Shown: positions 3,336-25,537 of the stretch, one piece after another
Layout of the letters: every line of letters starts with the position of its first letter
How positions within the stretch are numbered: the first letter of the stretch is position 1
Origin: a virus
Taxonomy: Duplodnaviria; Heunggongvirae; Uroviricota; Caudoviricetes
DNA: 39,374 bases
IMG/VR virus record: IMGVR_UViG_3300029009_000036
Coordinates: 1-39,374 of that record
Direction: 5' to 3' (one strand)
Program-made: the position numbers and the translations under genes
The notes under the pieces: generated by a model
Told to the model about the DNA's origin: nothing
Database searches by the model: none
What the model saw: only the letters and a program-made list of their open reading frames with translations

Positions 3336-3390
3336 GATAGCTCCTCCTGACAAAAACAGGAACGATGCCATTTGCGCGCTATTTCTGCAT

Positions 3391-3416
3391 TTTCATAAAC
3401 GTTGGTTTGGGAGAAG
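3391..3416. repeat. Invertase crossover site, left (gix/pix-like)
   Basis: tttcataaacgttggtttgggagaag; its reverse complement cttctcccaaaccaacgtttatgaaa matches 5224-5249 over ~20 bp; AAACC-NN-GGTTT core typical of gix/hix sites. Confidence 0.6.
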
Positions 3417-3754
3417 CGGCAAAAAGGAATGTGGGGACAGGGGCGAATCAGATACCTGATATGGGTAGCTTCACGCTTTCTGTTTCAGGTACTGGATATC
3501 AAAAATTACCATCTGGTTTTATTCTTCAGTGGGGCTCAATCGGCGCTCCAGGCATTGCACAGGATGTGGTAACCCATTTCCCGATTGCATTTCCGAACAG
3601 ATGTCTGCGTGTTTTGGTCTCACAAGACTACACACCAGATAGCGGGGCTGTTGGTTATATTGCCTGTGCAGGTTTTAGTCCCGACCCGGTTAAATTTATA
3701 TCCAGAGCCAGTACTCCAGGTCTCGGCGCTTCATTTTTAGCGTTAGGCTGTTAA
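3402..3754 (+). other. Alternative tail-fibre C-terminal coding segment (silent orientation, no own start)
   Basis: Open frame encoding ...[23 protein letters not shown]..., a tail-fibre C-terminal-like sequence, beginning at the left crossover site and followed by its own tfa gene. Confidence 0.5.
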
Positions 3755-3775
3755 TTTAGCTATATGGAATGAGAA

Positions 3776-4216
3776 ATGAATTATATATATTCCGCGACTA
3801 CAAACTCTTTCTATCCGTTAGAGATGAAAGAGGATTACACTCAAGCTGACTCATGGCCAGATGATGCTGTTGAAGTTGACGAGCAGGTGTATATTGAGTT
3901 TTCCGGATTACCGCCGAAAGGAAAAATCCGTATCGCTGGAGAAAATGGTTTTCCTGCATGGTCTGAAATTCCACCACCAACACATGAGGAACAGATTGCT
4001 GCAGCCGAACTGGAAAAGCAGCAATTGATTAATCAGGCCAACGATTATATGAACAGTAAACAATGGCCTGGTAAAGCGGCTATTGGTCGTCTGAAAGGTG
4101 AGGAACTGGCGCAATATAATTTGTGGCTGGATTATCTGGACGCACTGGAACTGGTTGATTCCTCCAGTGCTCCAGATATTGAATGGCCTACGCCTCCGGC
4201 AGTTCAGGCCAGATGA
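3776..4216 (+). CDS. Tail fibre assembly protein (alternative copy, Tfa family)
   Basis: 146 aa; C-terminus ...LWLDYLDALELVDSSSAPDIEWPTPP shares the conserved Tfa C-terminal motif with the convergent 4188-4781 gene. Confidence 0.8.
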   Translation: MNYIYSATTNSFYPLEMKEDYTQADSWPDDAVEVDEQVYIEFSGLPPKGKIRIAGENGFPAWSEIPPPTHEEQIAAAELEKQQLINQANDYMNSKQWPGKAAIGRLKGEELAQYNLWLDYLDALELVDSSSAPDIEWPTPPAVQAR

Positions 4217-13845: not shown

Positions 13846-15341
13846 TATGCAGACTCCTCTGAATACTGAAGACGGAACTGGTTAACCACGGCAAAAACAC
13901 GCAACTGGTTAACATAGTCAGGCGGGAACAGCGTGTTCAGGCGGTTCGGATCGCTGGCATCACGCTCCACAACCAGGTACTGCTTAAACAGTTCGTAGTT
14001 TTCCACGATCCCCGCTCGCTCAAGCTGACGGTAGGTTGCCAGCAGTTCCCCTTTGATCACCGCCGGGGTGACAATCGCCTGACCGGGACCAAAGCGGGTA
14101 CCGTCACTGGCAAGCTTGTGACGCCCGTACTTACTGGTAATGACGGATTTCAGTTTGCGCAGTACATACGCGCTGGTATGCAGCGTCTCGCTGTCGAGGT
14201 AGCTGTTATCCGCAACCCCGTAAGCGTTTTTCCTGTACGTGGTGACATCACGCTGAATGCGCAGTACCCCGCTTTCGACATACGCCGTTGCCACGCCATG
14301 AGACAGCAGGGTCTGTTGTTCGGTCATCGTGAACCGTTTCCCCTTCGGCGCAGGCAGCATACCCACCAGCTCACCGGTCTGCGTGGGACGTGCCGGATCG
14401 TTGCGAATAAACACCGCTGCGCGGGCGGTACGGCTTGCCGCCAGCTCATCGGCAGGCGTCTGGGTGTCTTTTTCATACCCCGCCAGGGTAATGTGCTGCT
14501 GGTTAAACTGGTCACCTGCGGTCACCAGTTCTGACAGCGTGCCGATCTTTGCCGTATACACATGACCATACAGCTGACGCGCATAGCTCCAGCGACCGCT
14601 GGTATCGTTCATCTCGGTCACCAGCGTGTTAACGGAGGCCGTGTCGTTGAACGGCAGGCCGATATAATCAAACGGCTCATCCGCCATTGCAGCCACCGCG
14701 CCAGTGAGAACAGGAGAGCCCGTTCCGGCGGTCCCCGTCGCCACGGCAATCTGTACGCCCGCAGGCAGCACTTCGCCCCCACCAAAGCCGTAGTAATTGA
14801 GGCTGACAGGAATTTCATTCCCGCAAAGCCCCTTATGACGCGCGGTCAGTGTGACCACGCCTGCCGAAGATGAGGCCGTAAACGGCAGGGTCGGAACGGC
14901 ATTGATGGCATCCTGGATACTGCTGGCAATCGTCGTGACGTTATCGCCGTTGGTCACCGAAGCCTGCACACGGGTACGTCCCACATAGACATTCACCGTG
15001 CCGCTTTCGGTTGCCGCCCCGGTCACCGTCAGCGTAACCGTTGCCGCCGCGCCTGTGGCTTCCGGAACGGCAATCACATACAGCTCACCAAACGGGTCGG
15101 TCTGGCGATAAGCCTCGACCATACGCGCCAGCTGACTTCCCGCACCACAAATCTGGCGTGCATAGTCTGCCGACGGCATCAGCACCAGACTGTTGGCAAC
15201 AATCTCTGCACCGTTATTGGCATGACCAATCAGCAGCGATGCTCCGCTGTCCTGTGCAGTATTCGCAGCCTGGTTATCCATTTCCGCATAAAACAGCGGA
15301 ACCAGCGTATTCGACGGAATGGTGTTAAAGCTTATCGTCAT
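13845..15341 (-). CDS. Contractile tail sheath protein
   Basis: 498 aa, ATG at 15341; size and position typical of Mu-like sheath. Confidence 0.85.
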   Translation of the reverse strand: MTISFNTIPSNTLVPLFYAEMDNQAANTAQDSGASLLIGHANNGAEIVANSLVLMPSADYARQICGAGSQLARMVEAYRQTDPFGELYVIAVPEATGAAATVTLTVTGAATESGTVNVYVGRTRVQASVTNGDNVTTIASSIQDAINAVPTLPFTASSSAGVVTLTARHKGLCGNEIPVSLNYYGFGGGEVLPAGVQIAVATGTAGTGSPVLTGAVAAMADEPFDYIGLPFNDTASVNTLVTEMNDTSGRWSYARQLYGHVYTAKIGTLSELVTAGDQFNQQHITLAGYEKDTQTPADELAASRTARAAVFIRNDPARPTQTGELVGMLPAPKGKRFTMTEQQTLLSHGVATAYVESGVLRIQRDVTTYRKNAYGVADNSYLDSETLHTSAYVLRKLKSVITSKYGRHKLASDGTRFGPGQAIVTPAVIKGELLATYRQLERAGIVENYELFKQYLVVERDASDPNRLNTLFPPDYVNQLRVFAVVNQFRLQYSEESA

Positions 15342-20806: not shown

Positions 20807-22540
20807 TTAAAGCGAGCGGATCCCATAGGACTCAATGTGGTCAGACAGCGTGTCTTCTTTCTCGTACAGCATGGCTCTGCCAACCGCCATAATCAGCGCA
20901 ACTGCACCATCGATTTTGTTTTCCGCCTGCTCTTTGACGGGCTTCACCACATCATCGTTACCCGGAATGGTTTTGCCGACCACGTTGCCGATACACCAGG
21001 TCATGATGGGATTGCCATCATGATGAAAGCGCCCCGATTCAATTGCCGCTTCCAGCTCTTTCATCGGATCGGACATGTTGGTGTAGTTCTGAATGATAGT
21101 GATGGGGTTCAGGTCTTCATCAGCAAGGTCATGTGACAACCCGGTCGCCCCAAAGGGGTCGATGGGTGACTCACTGACCGGGCTGATTTTGTTCGCCGCT
21201 TTGGCCTCCTCGAGGATGTAGCGATAATCCACCTCCGCACCATCGGTAACGGTCAGAACGCCCATTTCCACCCATTTCTGAAAGCGTTCGGCTGTCCGGC
21301 GATCTTCATTTTTCTCGACGCTGTACACCGTGTCATACGGTACCCAGAAACGCGGGGCCACACTGTAGTAATGCGTTTTACCGTCAATCTCGCGGGTATA
21401 AAGTCGCGCCATGCTGTTCATATCCAGCTTACGCGCCAGGTCAAAGGCCAGAATGCACGGCTGCCCCTCGAACTGCTCAAGGGTCAGTGATTTATCCTCG
21501 CAGCTCTGCCAGCTCACCAGGTTGAAATACGCCGAACGCGCCGACACCCAGATATTGAGGTGTTTTGTTTTAAAGACGTTTGCCAGACGGGCGTTATTTT
21601 TCGCACGCTGCTGCTGACTTAACAAAAATTCGCGATAAACCGACACGCCAATATTTGGATTGGCTTTTTCCAGCACCTGCGGGTCGGTCCAGTCGTCACC
21701 TTCATCAACGGTATAGATGATCCCGAACAGTTCATCGTTAGGCACCGAGCCGTTGAGCATCTCGATGACTTCCCGCCGTTTGTCGTAGCACGGCCCCTCA
21801 ATGTTGTACCCGGCGGTAGTGATAGCCCACATCAGTGGCTGACGTCGCGCCCCCATCCCGGTAAGCATCGTGGTGTAAAGCGCATCTGTGGCGTGCTCGT
21901 GATATTCATCCACCACCGCACAGTGGGGTGATGAACCATCACCGGGGTTACCGATCAGCGGTTCAAAACGCGCACCATCCTCCGGACGGTTCATGTTTGA
22001 GGCGTTAACCTCAATCCCGAACGCTTCCGTCAGCATGGGTGTGCGTTTACACATCAGTCTTGCCGGACGAAAGACTTCCCATGCCTGTTTCTCCGTCGTG
22101 GCACCGGAATACACTTCCGCGCCGAACTCGTTATCACAGGCAAAACAATACAGGGCGACACCGGCAGAGATTGCCGATTTGCCGTTCTTACGGGGGATTT
22201 CGGTATACACCTCACGGAAGCGGCGCAGCCGGGAGCCTTTATTGACCCAGCCAAACGCGCAGCAGATCACAAAGAGCTGCCACGGCTCCAGCGTGATGGG
22301 CATCCTCTTAAATGCCCACTCACCCTTGGTGTGCGGCAACAGCTGAATAAATTTGGCGGCCCGTTCAGCCAGGTCCTTGTCGAAGCGGTAACGAAACGAC
22401 TTACTTTTTTCCGCCATCAGGTCATCAAGATGGCGCTGGCAGGCCTGAATCACAAACTGGCAGGCCACAATCTTTCCGCGCACGACATCCCGGGCATACT
22501 GATTTGCAGCATTTACGTTGGGGTAAGATTTCCGGCTCAT
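20807..22540 (-). CDS. Terminase large subunit
   Basis: 577 aa, ATG at 22540; 4-nt overlap with small-subunit gene. Confidence 0.9.
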
Positions 22541-23031
22541 GATTCGATAATTTTCAGAAACGGGTTAGTGGCTTTCTTCTGCCCCGCCAGGCCAATCAGA
22601 CGCTGGCGGCTGCTGGGGTCGAGTCCGAGCATTGCCCCCGTGCTGCTCATCTCGGACTCCTGTTCTTTTTTGGCGGTCAGCTCCGGATTTTTGACCCTGC
22701 CGCCCATTGCACCGGTGATGGTGTTGCCCTGTATGGCAATATTTTTCACGGCACGTCGCCAGAACTCGTAGGCCACGCACCACCGCTCAAGTACCGCCAG
22801 GTCAGTCACGCACAGCAGGCCCTGACCGCAGAGTTCTTTGGTTGTCAGTTGCCACATGATCGTGGCGAGAGGGAGATCTTCTTCAGCGAACCACTCTGGT
22901 GGCTCAACACCTTTGATGGGCGTAAAAACAGGTTCATCTTTGTTCAGGGCTCGCTTGCCGGGGTTTCCGGCCAGCGCCTTGCGCGCCGTTGGCTTGGGGC
23001 GACGCCCGGAACGCCCCGCCGTTCCAGCCAT
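22537..23031 (-). CDS. Terminase small subunit (P27-like)
   Basis: ORF-track start 23040 is GTG with no spacer to an SD; ATG at 23031 ([14 protein letters not shown]...) has CAGGAG ~9 nt upstream. Confidence 0.75.
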
Positions 23032-23040
23032 ATGCGGCAC

Positions 23041-23156
23041 TCCTGGTTAAATTTCATTTTTCGCGGGTATAAAAAAACGATGGGGCGGGCAGTCCGGAAG
23101 ACGTCAGGTCACAGGGATTTGACCCGCCCCTCCCCTCTGGCAGTGGGAACTGGTTC
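23041..23156. other. Candidate cos / packaging-site region between HNH and terS
   Basis: Non-coding 116 bp containing inverted GGGGCGGG...CCCGCCCC; HNH-cos-TerS arrangement is the norm in HK97-like cos phages. Confidence 0.3.
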
Positions 23157-23507
23157 TTACTTCAGCCGTTCACGGGCCGTCTTCGCCTTATGACACGGCC
23201 AGCACAGGCTCTGCAGATTGCTGTCGGCATCAGTGCCGCCATGCGCTTTAGGGATGATGTGGTCAACGGTTTTCGCCTCGCGCACCACACCGGCACGCAA
23301 ACACAACTGACACAGGCCTTTGTCACGCTTTAGTACACGCCCCCGGATAACATCCCATTTCGAACCATAACCGCGCTGGTGTCGGGACTGGCCTGGCTTG
23401 TATTGCTTCCAGCCCTCGCTTTTGTGGCTTTCGCAATAACCTGACGGGTCAGTCGTGGTATGGCGGCAGCCGCGAACTCGGCAGGCTTTTGGGGTTCGTG
23501 GTGGCAT
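23157..23507 (-). CDS. HNH endonuclease (terminase-associated)
   Basis: 116 aa from ATG 23507 (GGAG 5 nt upstream): MPPRTPKACRVRGC...CQLCLRAGVVREAKTVDHIIPKAHGGTDADSNLQSLCWPCHKAK has CxxC...DHI.P...N...CxxCH HNH signature. The longer ORF to 23606 uses TTG inside the repeat. Confidence 0.8.
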   Translation of the reverse strand: MPPRTPKACRVRGCRHTTTDPSGYCESHKSEGWKQYKPGQSRHQRGYGSKWDVIRGRVLKRDKGLCQLCLRAGVVREAKTVDHIIPKAHGGTDADSNLQSLCWPCHKAKTARERLK

Positions 23508-24017
23508 ATGTACTCCAATGAAGAAGCTACCGACATAGCCTCCTCCATTCGTCGTGAAACTATTTTCATCTACCCAGTAATGAATTCTTTGAAGAGTCGA
23601 GATCAATACAACTCACTGATGGGAGAGGCTTGCCTCACGCGTGAGGCAAGCCTCCTGTTTGATTTACTGGACAGTATAGGGGGGCAGAATGCCTTCCTCA
23701 CTCGAATAACATCAATTACGGAGCTTCAACACGGGTCAGTCGTGGTATGGCGGCAGCCGCGAACTCGGCATGCTTTTGAGGTTCGAGGGAGCATATGTAC
23801 TCCAATGAAGAAGCCACCGACATAGTCTCCTCCATTCGTCGTGAAACTATTTTCATCTACCCAGTAATGAATTCTTTGAAGAGTCGAGATCAATACAACT
23901 CACTGATGGGAGAGGCTTGTCTCACGCGTGAGGCAAGTTTCCCGTGTGATTTACTTGACACTATAGAAGGACAGAATGCCTTCCTCACTCGAATAACATC
24001 AATTAAGGAGGTTCAAC
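23431..24017. repeat. Tandem direct duplication, ~287-bp unit, two copies plus junction fragment
   Basis: 23444-23730 and 23731-24017 align at ~90% identity; each unit carries the first ~21 codons of HNH and a long palindrome; junctions share tcg(c)aataac. Confidence 0.85.
23625..23654. repeat. 30-bp perfect palindrome (degenerate second copy at ~23911-23940)
   Basis: gaggcttgcctcacgcgtgaggcaagcctc is its own reverse complement; no adjacent U-run, so not a canonical intrinsic terminator. Confidence 0.8.
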
Positions 24018-24140
24018 ATGTTTCATTCCACAAGTCATCAGGCTGTAATTATGGTAGCATCAGTTTGTGCCACATACCTTTTCCGCTTCACTTTGAGTCT
24101 GATTCATTTCTACCTGACCGGCTCGCCTCTATCTTTCTAA
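24018..24140 (+). CDS. Hypothetical small hydrophobic peptide (40 aa), antisense to o-spanin 3' end
   Basis: Near-consensus SD taaggagg (24004-24011) 6 nt before ATG 24018; MFHSTSHQAVIMVASVCATYLFRFTLSLIHFYLTGSPLSF; no promoter identified. Confidence 0.25.
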   Translation: MFHSTSHQAVIMVASVCATYLFRFTLSLIHFYLTGSPLSF

Positions 24141-24363
24141 TCCCCGCTTTGTCAATATTGCATTGTCCCAACGCTGACAACAGACTCACATTCAACTCCA
24201 GACTGGCACCATACGTCAGCGGATTGGGTATAAACGGTACAGGAGTATCAGAAGTCAGGCTGGCTGGCAGTGGTGCCACCGGAGCGCTCACGTAAACCGT
24301 TCGCGAATTTCCGCAACCGGTCAGCAGCGACAGCAGGCACAGGACGTGAAGCACAATCATCAT
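24088..24363 (-). CDS. o-spanin (Rz1-like outer-membrane lipoprotein)
   Basis: ATG at 24363 in +1 frame inside Rz; MMIVLHVLCLLSLLTGC... has lipobox LLTGC; Pro-rich mature part; extends past Rz stop (overlapped architecture). Confidence 0.7.
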   Translation of the reverse strand: MMIVLHVLCLLSLLTGCGNSRTVYVSAPVAPLPASLTSDTPVPFIPNPLTYGASLELNVSLLSALGQCNIDKAGIRKIEASRSGRNESDSK

Positions 24364-24640
24364 CCGCAACAGCCACTTTGATATCTTCCTGGGTTCTCTG
24401 TGACTCCAGTGTGATCTGCTGTTTTGCATGCTGGTTAGCCTCCAGAACTGTATTGACGATTTGCAGTGATTGCAGGACGTTATTGGTAATGACAGTTGCC
24501 GATTTGGCATTTTGTACAGCCTCATCAGCACGTTTCTTTTCGTGCTGATATTTGCTGTAGTAGTGGTTGGCAGACCAGATGAAAGAACCAATGACAGTAA
24601 AGAAGAATGCAGCGATAACCAACTTATAGCTCAACTTCAT
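24248..24640 (-). CDS. i-spanin (Rz-like)
   Basis: 130 aa, ATG at 24640; N-terminal TM helix LVIAAFFFTVIGSFIW then coiled-coil periplasmic domain; follows endolysin. Confidence 0.75.
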   Translation of the reverse strand: MKLSYKLVIAAFFFTVIGSFIWSANHYYSKYQHEKKRADEAVQNAKSATVITNNVLQSLQIVNTVLEANQHAKQQITLESQRTQEDIKVAVADDDCASRPVPAVAADRLRKFANGLRERSGGTTASQPDF

Positions 24641-25100
24641 TTACCACCCCACCAGCCTCTTTAAACCGGGCAATCAGATCACCGATTTTATGTTCATACT
24701 GACCGTAACCAGCACCCGGCAATGAAGCCCAGATATTGCTGCAACGGTCGATTGCCTGACGGATATCACCGCGATCAATCATCGGCAAAGCGCCACGCTC
24801 TTTAATCTGTTGCAATGCCACAGCGTCCTGACTTTTGGGAGAGAAGTCTTTCAGGCCAAGCTGATTACGGTAGGCATCCCACCAACGGGAAAGAAGCTGG
24901 TAACGTCCGGCAGCTGTTGATTTGAGTTTGGGGTTTAGCGTGACAAGTTTGCGAGGGTGATCGGAGTAATCAGTAAACATTTCACCACCGACAATAACAT
25001 CATAACCGTGGTTACGTGTCGGTTGTCGCCCGTTATCCGTTCCTTCTGACCATGCAACCATATCCAGGAAAGCTTTACGCTGGGAATTTAGTACCTGCAT
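24624..25100 (-). CDS. Endolysin, lambda R-like lytic transglycosylase
   Basis: 158 aa; ...QRKAFLDMVAWSEGTDNGRQPTRNHGYDVIVGGEMFTDYSDHPRKLVTLNPKLKSTAAGRYQLLSRWWDAYR... near-identical in pattern to lambda R as recalled. Confidence 0.9.
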   Translation of the reverse strand: MQVLNSQRKAFLDMVAWSEGTDNGRQPTRNHGYDVIVGGEMFTDYSDHPRKLVTLNPKLKSTAAGRYQLLSRWWDAYRNQLGLKDFSPKSQDAVALQQIKERGALPMIDRGDIRQAIDRCSNIWASLPGAGYGQYEHKIGDLIARFKEAGGVVNEVEL

Positions 25101-25103
25101 AAA

Positions 25104-25445
25104 TTACTCCTTAGAGCCACCAAACTTGTTACCGATTACTCTCATTGCAGCCCCACGAATAGCATCGACACCGATCAACCCAACACCACCACCAATGGCA
25201 ACAGAAAGCGATTTAGGCCATCCGACATACTCAAGAGCGGATGCAAAAGTCAGCGTCAGAGCGCCGCAGAGCAAAATCTCGAGCGTTTTTCGCTTCCAGC
25301 CACCACCACCGCCAAAATAGGCAATGCGCAAGCCAGCCATAACGATCGACATAATTACTGCGCCCAGCGGTGTGTCTCCACGCCACCAGCTCTGTAACAA
25401 TTCAAGTAAGTCAGACCAGGAATGAGGATCGTTATGCATTTTCAT
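25104..25445 (-). CDS. Holin with dual-start motif
   Basis: ORF opens at GTG 25454, but ATG 25445 (GGAGGTG RBS) and ATG 25439 give the M-K-M dual start seen in lambda S; hydrophobic helices follow. Confidence 0.7.
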   Translation of the reverse strand: MKMHNDPHSWSDLLELLQSWWRGDTPLGAVIMSIVMAGLRIAYFGGGGGWKRKTLEILLCGALTLTFASALEYVGWPKSLSVAIGGGVGLIGVDAIRGAAMRVIGNKFGGSKE

Positions 25446-25537
25446 AATTCCCACCTCCGGTTATCGGAAGTGCAACGAGTGAAGGGAAAGAAGCTGGTTA
25501 TAGCGCTGAGTCGCAAAAGTTGCGTAGTGCACAAAAA

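Follow-up and report, generated by a model that had tools for sequence, protein, structure and literature searches.

Does the short stretch between the lysis and packaging genes of a temperate phage hold a gene of its own on the opposite strand, and if so, which polymerase would transcribe it? The question is raised by a tailed-phage sequence of 39,374 nucleotides (nt), IMG/VR record IMGVR_UViG_3300029009_000036, which was analyzed over its whole length (hereafter, the window). A minus-strand late operon, from holin through large terminase, here surrounds a 40-codon plus-strand open reading frame (ORF), which we call the micro-gene. An earlier note on this DNA had singled out the ORF for its Shine-Dalgarno (SD) sequence and its antisense position at the end of a spanin gene. 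We conclude that the ORF is very probably a real gene. Judging from its sequence context, we lean slightly toward a moron-like micro-gene that would be transcribed by the polymerase of a superinfecting podophage as the best explanation of the locus.

The octamer TAAGGAGG at 24004-24011 stands 6 nt before the ATG at 24018, and together with the next T, it forms a 9-nt complement to the 3′ end of 16S rRNA. The sequence and the ORF list bear out these coordinates. The ORF overlaps the last 53 nt (24088-24140) of lysC, the LysC/Rz1-type o-spanin gene on the opposite strand, and Tandem Repeats Finder places the end of a 287-bp repeat on the ATG, both as described before. The SD had also been called the strongest in the window, and TAAGGAGG does occur only once on the two strands, though at least one copy arises in 41 of 100 shuffles, so that a lone octamer is not improbable by itself. 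The ORF stands out beyond chance because of its conservation and the selection on it and not because of the SD count. The SD was also considered as an anti-SD mimic in the late mRNA acting on the ribosome-binding site of the HNH gene, a candidate that was set aside with only 4 to 5 bp seen by eye.

Conservation of the ORF and SD in related prophages had been proposed as a check. The SD, the start codon, and an open frame recur without exception in the related IMG/VR loci (about 100) and in E. coli genomes, but the spacer at 23795-24030 is equally conserved. The frame is open in 28 of 30 haplotypes, and the SD is invariant in nearly all relatives, with TAAGGAAG in its place in two alleles. Within the peptide, residues 21 to 40 are conserved around the core LSLIHFYLTGSPLSF, and residues 5 to 20 are hypervariable, with nearly all changes in codons 6 to 20 being nonsynonymous.

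To ask whose reading frame is conserved, we divided the ORF at the lysC stop, a boundary set before the data were inspected. Codons 24 to 40 plus the stop have 15 site-allele changes, of which 11 leave the ORF product unaltered, where 26 to 35% silent changes would be expected (p = 0.0002-0.003). This result is unchanged without the peptide-biased loci, and the least biased subset has 9 silent changes of 12. The third codon positions of the ORF are the second positions of LysC, and the same changes alter LysC (D/G, N/S, K/R, and S/N); directly beyond the ORF stop, the LysC core returns to the normal third-position pattern. The constrained frame in 24088-24140 is the small ORF's own. Between the E. 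coli allele of the window and Klebsiella, codons 26 to 40 differ by five synonymous changes and no nonsynonymous change, and the ratio of nonsynonymous to synonymous polymorphism (pN/pS) across all pairs is 0 to 0.27.

These patterns bear directly on whether an SD-like sequence and an open frame merely happened to arise in a young, conserved noncoding spacer. Such an origin would suit the spacer, which is about as conserved as the SD, and the N-terminal half of the ORF, which evolves like noncoding DNA (codons 2 to 23 have 3 silent and 26 nonsilent changes among 29). Other frames are open as well, and PGAP leaves the ORF unannotated. It would not produce an in-phase excess of silent changes in the C-terminal half, differences to Klebsiella that are synonymous only, or homologues that keep their C terminus, length, and stop despite unrelated N-terminal halves and upstream DNA. 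We regard a chance ORF as already largely refuted and highly improbable, and the earlier suspicion of coincidence is countered by the purifying selection and by the homologues in Klebsiella and other prophages. Two further coding candidates were rejected: a 166-amino-acid plus-strand ORF at 23795..24295 has frameshifts and stops in relatives, and no three-base periodicity was found in the 190 nt upstream of the micro-gene.

The homologues were recovered by profile searches. The first, over 1.8 billion representative proteins, identified P0035 (MTKLITKYVIINFLFSKELTRFILSLTHYYLTGSPLTF), and the second added P0037 and a Klebsiella peptide (MLKISLLSTIVNHKITFAVIYFLLSLIHFYLTGSPLSF) that is recorded in 563 blocks of the collection. 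Members of the homologue set (P0035, P0037, and P0039) are 38 to 40 amino acids long and end in the same motif, and distant homologues also have a strong SD, AAGGAG in Klebsiella and GGAGGA in locus L355. Every homologue gene lies between a lysis cassette and terminase or portal genes on the strand opposite to both. The neighbors themselves are diverse, with Rz1, LysC, or DUF2570 spanins on one side and HNH plus P27 or DUF2280 plus metallopeptidase packaging modules on the other.

The stretch that holds the ORF and its upstream promoter-like sequences (23885-24140) is present in 632 of 5426 complete E. coli genomes. The micro-gene is unannotated by PGAP in every RefSeq record inspected, and gene callers report it sporadically as "hypothetical." In three phage records (ON470600, ON470607, and ON470621), it is labeled "protein of unknown function DUF4347," which looks like an annotation artifact for a 40-amino-acid peptide. 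Searching one-genome-per-species GTDB representatives with peptide patterns returned a spurious match only, and the peptide strings were found neither in the literature searched nor in the supplements of Hücker 2017 and Fesenko 2024. Prophage Sp1 of strain Sakai lacks the micro-gene module.

What could transcribe this gene? According to the earlier note, no promoter was evident. That holds for the host polymerase, as a promoter and terminator scan of 23000-25000 found no sigma-70-like site on either strand; it does not hold for phage polymerases, since SP6/K1E-like and T7-like sequences lie upstream on the same strand. The closer of these, P2, has a predicted +1 at G23966 that would yield a 52-nt leader. 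Of the 21 positions of the SP6 core, P2 has 19, a score that none of 100 shuffles reaches. Against a consensus derived from the 11 promoters of phage K1E itself (ATTTACTGGACACTATAGAAG), P2 has one mismatch, and in 23-bp scoring, it matches K1E at 20 of 23 positions. From -17 to +6, the K1E promoter at 13934 has the very sequence of the commonest P2 allele, found in 148 of 239 loci, and other P2 alleles carry the SP6-type AGGTG. BLAST of P2 returned SP6, K1-5, K1E, Vectrevirus, and Klebsiella SP6-like phages, with hits at 6 to 10 unannotated intergenic places per genome. Only the promoter is shared with K1E, because the similarity ends at about +8.

The second sequence, P1, lies 58 nt farther upstream and matches the T7 consensus at 18 of 23 positions, the best value in the window, where all other 23-mers reach at most 16. 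With a single exception among the loci, no sequence matches the T7-group models better than P1 and P2, which always lie upstream of the ORF and on its strand. Their specificity varies: the P1 allele of locus L364 (AATTACGACTCACTATTGGGAAA) matches T7 at 19 of 23 positions, and of the Klebsiella alleles TATTAAGACTCACTATTGGGAAG, AATTAGGGCCCACTATAGAGACC, and AATTAGGTAGCACTATAGGGAGG, the latter two match K11 at 19 of 23 (L357 and L361). BLAST of the P1 alleles retrieved promoters from several intergenic sites per T7-like phage genome, some of them annotated as "promoter," and for the L357 allele, 135 of the 144 matched records are Klebsiella phages. The promoter-like sequences have the orientation and spacing that suit the ORF, and the putative promoter types of the E. 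coli and Klebsiella alleles match the podophages of the respective host genus. P1 and P2 resemble the 23-bp promoters of T7/SP6-like phages in their match from -17 to +6, their CACTATAG core, and their initiating G, and they share with the promoters of SP6, K1E, K1-5, and K11 a division into several specificity classes (ACGACT, ACTGG, AGGTG, and GGGC). Unlike in those phages, the sequences here occur in temperate phages without a polymerase, ahead of a gene that podophages lack. As a separate observation, Klebsiella loci L357-L362 have extra promoter-like repeats (GGCGAGTATAGAAC, GTTACACGAGTAGGAAC, and GTTACACAATAGAAATC) 55 to 150 nt before the ATG, between the stem-loop described next and the SD; they match the SP6 model at just 13 to 15 of 23 positions and could be promoters of other podophage groups.

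A 13-bp stem-loop begins immediately after the predicted P1 start. Its stem varies by compensatory changes, from CTCAC/GTGAG in the window to CCAAC/GTTGG in SfIV, L002, and Klebsiella and CCAGC/GCTGG in L355. The predicted P1 transcript folds better than shuffles (z = -1.99) because of this stem-loop; folds of the whole region are not significant on either strand (z = -0.94 and +0.54), and Rfam at a permissive threshold returned no family. From the sequence, we read the stem-loop as the 5′-terminal structure of a P1 transcript. Leaders of T7/SP6-like phages such as that of T7 phi10 (GGGAGACCACAACGGTTTCCC) open in the same way, with a stem-loop at the 5′ start, and likewise have a very strong SD. 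A simple scan had flagged the upstream duplicate of the stem-loop as a terminator, a reading that we set aside in favor of a 5′ stem-loop.

Taken together, the plus strand would carry P1, the covarying stem-loop, P2, the 52-nt leader, a perfect SD, and an ORF of 38 to 40 codons whose predicted product is a single-helix peptide with the conserved C terminus LSLIHFYLTGSPLSF. In temperate phages of E. coli, Shigella, and Klebsiella, this would be a compact moron-like unit placed where lysis cassette and packaging genes meet, with its coding strand opposite to theirs. The longest ORF of the 39-kb window has 633 amino acids, and no T7-type polymerase was found in it; such polymerases have about 880. 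With neither a single-subunit RNA polymerase in the prophage nor a sigma-70 promoter in the unit, the unit would be silent in the lysogen. Its transcription would depend on infection by a T7-, K11-, K1E-, or SP6-like podophage that brings its polymerase, and we lean toward the ORF being driven by polymerases of invading phages.

The peptide, once made, might harm the invader or kill the infected cell, by promoter-trap exclusion or abortive infection. We offer only tentatively that it acts as an antiphage effector. Somewhat more tentative still is a natural "promoter trap," in which an effector that neither host nor prophage can express would be switched on solely by the invader's polymerase, with promoter alleles swapped according to host genus. 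In locus L355, a neighbor of the micro-gene (3346-4029, minus strand) encodes a DUF4145 protein that PADLOC matches to PD-T7-4 (6.5e-12), a candidate anti-T7 defense gene; its position beside the micro-gene fits a defense hotspot and proves nothing.

Several points weigh against transcription by invading phages, a toxic product, or the gene itself. P1 is degenerate in most E. coli alleles, with 14 to 15 of 23 matches and TA changed to AT at -2/-1. P2 of the window has a G-to-T change in the specificity region, although a natural K1E promoter has the same TTGACAC. L355 matches none of the five consensus models, and of these, only the K1E consensus was derived here, the T7, T3, SP6, and K11 strings having been taken as given. 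The selection statistics rest on few sites of a 40-codon gene, and the N-terminal half of the peptide is unconstrained. No Pfam, PHROGs, NCBIfam, or PADLOC entry matches the peptide, and its variable hydrophobicity (best 19-residue value of 0.81 to 2.03 among alleles) leaves a common toxic mechanism not obvious.

The degeneracy of P1 also bears on whether the promoters and SD are unused relics of T7/SP6-like phage DNA left by a past transfer, with expression, as for the bor moron, by read-through or from an unrecognized host promoter. The site is a classic moron site that in many prophages immediately precedes a bor/iss gene of like orientation, which would suit such a history. It is harder to reconcile with the flanks, as only the 23-bp promoter is common with podophages, and with tblastn, which finds the peptide in no T7/SP6-like phage of a 50,697-genome collection. 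Moreover, P2 is intact in most loci, promoter type tracks host genus, and the scan for sigma-70 promoters came back empty. We therefore consider relics unlikely.

Alternatively, the invader's polymerase might serve something other than the peptide, in a hitchhiking or satellite-like manner, by transcribing downstream genes such as bor/iss or an antisense RNA to the lysis cassette, with the peptide being secondary. Transcripts from P1 and P2 of the window would indeed run antisense into lysC, Rz, endolysin, and holin, and elsewhere, they would run in the sense direction into iss/bor or a 125-amino-acid gene. Yet downstream content varies by locus, and the selected, conserved element beside the promoters is the micro-gene with its perfect SD. 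In L355 and L358, a terminator-like hairpin also follows about 150 nt after the ORF. We hold this use of the promoters to be quite unlikely, and slightly more so than relics. The hairpin itself (GCCACC TTTA GGTGGC, with an A-run on one side and a T-run on the other; L355 3290-3320) looks like a bidirectional terminator that closes the unit, and no counterpart was found after the ORF in the window.

The earlier note had likened the small hydrophobic peptide and its antisense arrangement to type I toxin systems, in which the mRNA of a peptide toxin would here be controlled by the antisense 3′ end of lysC or the late transcript. The description of the peptide stands: the window allele is hydrophobic (grand average of hydropathy, 0.91; best 19-residue Kyte-Doolittle window, 1.77), and AlphaFold2 predicts one helix over residues 2 to 34 followed by a GSPLSF tail, with a predicted local distance difference test score (pLDDT) of 82.5. 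A small helical hydrophobic peptide, a strong SD, and some antisense overlap, here of 53 nt, are indeed shared with Hok/Sok, Ldr, TisB, Ibs, and Zor. The likeness does not extend further, as those systems have a dedicated antisense RNA and a trigger different from the one proposed here. Neither a promoter and terminator for an antisense small RNA (23000-25000 scan) nor an Rfam match was found, and there is no toxin-family homology in Pfam, NCBIfam, PHROGs, or PADLOC. A transmembrane-grade span is not conserved among alleles either (1.77 in the window, 1.83 to 2.03 in Klebsiella, 0.81 to 1.53 in common E. coli alleles, and 1.21 in P0035), and D, E, and R residues sit in the middle of the hydrophobic span. 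The ORF also persists in many loci whose LysC partner has decayed to a fossil, is missing, or lies in a different context. Finally, the late transcript is absent in the lysogen, which would leave no standing antitoxin. We consider a type I pair very unlikely.

The antisense overlap instead looks like a by-product of LysC reading into an inserted unit, not a regulatory pairing. LysC/Rz1 homologues (the window and L103-L182) share a core that ends in ...QCNIDKAGIRKIE and continue into tails unrelated in sequence and length, among them ASRSGRNESDSK, MRRNALLAAGK, and SERTNH. The LysC tail is unconstrained, because tails differ completely among the homologues, and it seems to be whatever follows the recombination point. 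In the window, the last 12 or so LysC codons (ASRSGRNESDSK, 24088-24124) are the antisense reading of the 3′ half of the micro-gene. Downstream of the ORF there is always an antisense lysC 3′ fragment, in places no more than a fossil. The most economical account is an insertion of the unit into the 3′ end of a lysC gene, whose original end it replaced and which now reads on into the unit up to a stop. Separately, a truncated LysC 3′ fragment of about 47 amino acids with its own ATG (...SALGQCNLDKAGIRK...) lies beside the micro-gene even where there is a separate, intact spanin (L355 3112-3255, minus strand; L357-L362, about 3570-3750). L355 and the Klebsiella loci have almost the same fragment, and the N-terminal halves of the micro-gene there are completely different.

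Comparison with relatives supports an insertion. In SfV-type relatives, LysC has a different tail and the HNH gene starts about 27 nt past the LysC stop; in the window, about 290 nt and a new LysC tail intervene. The segment from 23795 to about 24124 is optional, because these relatives have another LysC tail and a close HNH gene. The G+C content of the unit (23800-24200) is about 44%, compared with 0.58 to 0.61 in the HNH and terminase genes and 0.52 to 0.55 in lysC and Rz, a low value being usual in intergenic DNA as well. The unit moves together with the HNH side and in other prophages is joined at 24204 to the bor/iss moron, a boundary confirmed against phage 21 and lambda-like phages. It thus resembles morons such as lambda bor as an extra unit between genes that are adjacent in related phages, with deviant base composition, antisense to the late operon, and at the bor/iss position. 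The difference lies in the promoter, which in such morons is of host type; here, the candidate promoters are of the single-subunit polymerase type and there is no sigma-70 site, and expression in a plain lysogen is therefore not expected.

The micro-gene was also considered as a part of the bor/iss moron itself and rejected, as the bor boundary at 24204 lies downstream of the ORF. The conserved spacer was likewise rejected as cos: the two ends of the SfIV genome lie beyond HNH, which puts cos between HNH and the small terminase gene, and the spacer is missing from SfV-type phages. To the right of 24204, O157:H7 and many other strains (L003 and L004) have in its place a lambda-type lysis cassette with the serum-resistance gene iss/bor on the plus strand, and promoter-driven transcripts would there enter iss in the sense direction.

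Promoters of this kind are a known type of signal outside podophages. Chen and Schneider reportedly described tandem T7-like promoter regions in enterobacterial genetic islands in 2006; these were reportedly 12 clusters in integrase-bearing islands of 4 to 13 kb with flanking direct repeats and promoters before two to five phage-related genes, for which a satellite-like reading is said to have been proposed. Those islands and the present locus have in common at least two tandem T7-group promoter-like sequences in prophage-like DNA without a matching polymerase. The sequences here differ in standing at the lysis/packaging junction of full lambdoid/HK97-like prophages, ahead of a single 40-codon gene. 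In the sit region of CFT073, which a review links to the 2006 islands, no T7-like promoter was found, and our literature search for prophage genes under phage-polymerase promoters returned nothing beyond that 2006 citation. What is new here is the undescribed, selected micro-gene family behind orphan T7-like promoters at the lysis/packaging junction.

A man-made parallel also exists. Djordjevic et al. are said to have engineered, in 1997, a suicide cassette for Lactococcus in which a phage-inducible promoter drives a lethal gene. Such cassettes share with the proposed unit a host-borne gene that only the invader's transcription machinery turns on. They are synthetic, whereas the unit here is natural and widespread and its putative effector is an uncharacterized 40-amino-acid peptide.

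T7- and SP6-like phages shut off the host RNA polymerase early, and because of this shutdown, most host and prophage genes are unable to respond. A gene under the invader's own promoter would escape that block. If the promoter trap proposed above exists, the unit would be an immune sensor that reads the transcription specificity of the invader and works after host polymerase shutdown, a new sensing principle for prophage-encoded defense. If the gene is transcribed by podophage polymerases as proposed, roughly every ninth sequenced E. coli strain, along with many Klebsiella strains, would carry an unannotated 40-codon gene expressed only in podophage infection. This would bear on host range in phage therapy, for which K1E/K1-5-like phages and Klebsiella T7-like phages are candidates. 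More generally, a "missing promoter" can belong to the polymerase of another organism, and standard annotation overlooks a selected gene that overlaps a spanin.

The positions of the features discussed and of the surrounding late genes are collected in Table 1.

Table 1. Micro-gene, upstream elements, and neighboring late genes, by position in the window
Feature	Position	Strand	Description or basis
Micro-gene	24018..24140	+	40 codons; product MFHSTSHQAVIMVASVCATYLFRFTLSLIHFYLTGSPLSF; from sequence and ORF list
SD sequence	24004..24012	+	TAAGGAGGT; 9-nt complement of 16S rRNA 3′ end, 5-6 nt before ATG
Hypervariable block	24033..24078	+	Micro-gene codons 6-20; between LysC stop and conserved initiation region
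P2	23949..23971	+	SP6/K1E-type single-subunit RNA polymerase promoter-like sequence ATTTACTTGACACTATAGAAGGA; ~50 nt upstream of SD
P1	23891..23913	+	T7-type promoter-like sequence CAATACAACTCACTGATGGGAGA; predicted +1 at G23908; ~60 nt above P2
Stem-loop	23912..23941	+	13 bp; begins 4 nt after predicted P1 start (+5)
Duplicate promoter region	23604..23684	+	P1 23604-23626, stem-loop 23625-23654, degenerate P2 23662-23684; from tandem duplication
Tandem duplication	23444..24018		287 bp, 2 copies, 93% identical; Tandem Repeats Finder
LysC/Rz1-type o-spanin	24088..24360	-	Pfam LysC, 1.3e-16; lysC annotation in identical E. coli record
Rz-type i-spanin	24248-24640	-	
Endolysin	24624-25100	-	
Holin	25104-25454	-	
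HNH endonuclease	23157-23507	-	
P27-family small terminase	22537-23040	-	
Large terminase	20807-22540	-	

Besides the promoter region, the tandem duplication includes the initial 64 nt of the HNH gene, and it brings the number of promoter-like sites in 23604-23971 to four. In the upstream copy, the SD and ATG are destroyed (TACGGAGC...ACG). Most relatives have a single copy of the 287-bp repeat, and two copies are found in a minority only. The duplication junction reads TTCAACA/CGGG (the slash marks the joint), and contigs P0002 and P0017 join the ORF to unrelated upstream DNA at the same place, which suggests a recombination hotspot at the ORF start. The HNH start codon lies within a CATATG palindrome (23505-23510 and 23792-23797), so that an ATG opens on both strands, and the spurious 121- and 166-amino-acid plus-strand ORFs therefore begin there.

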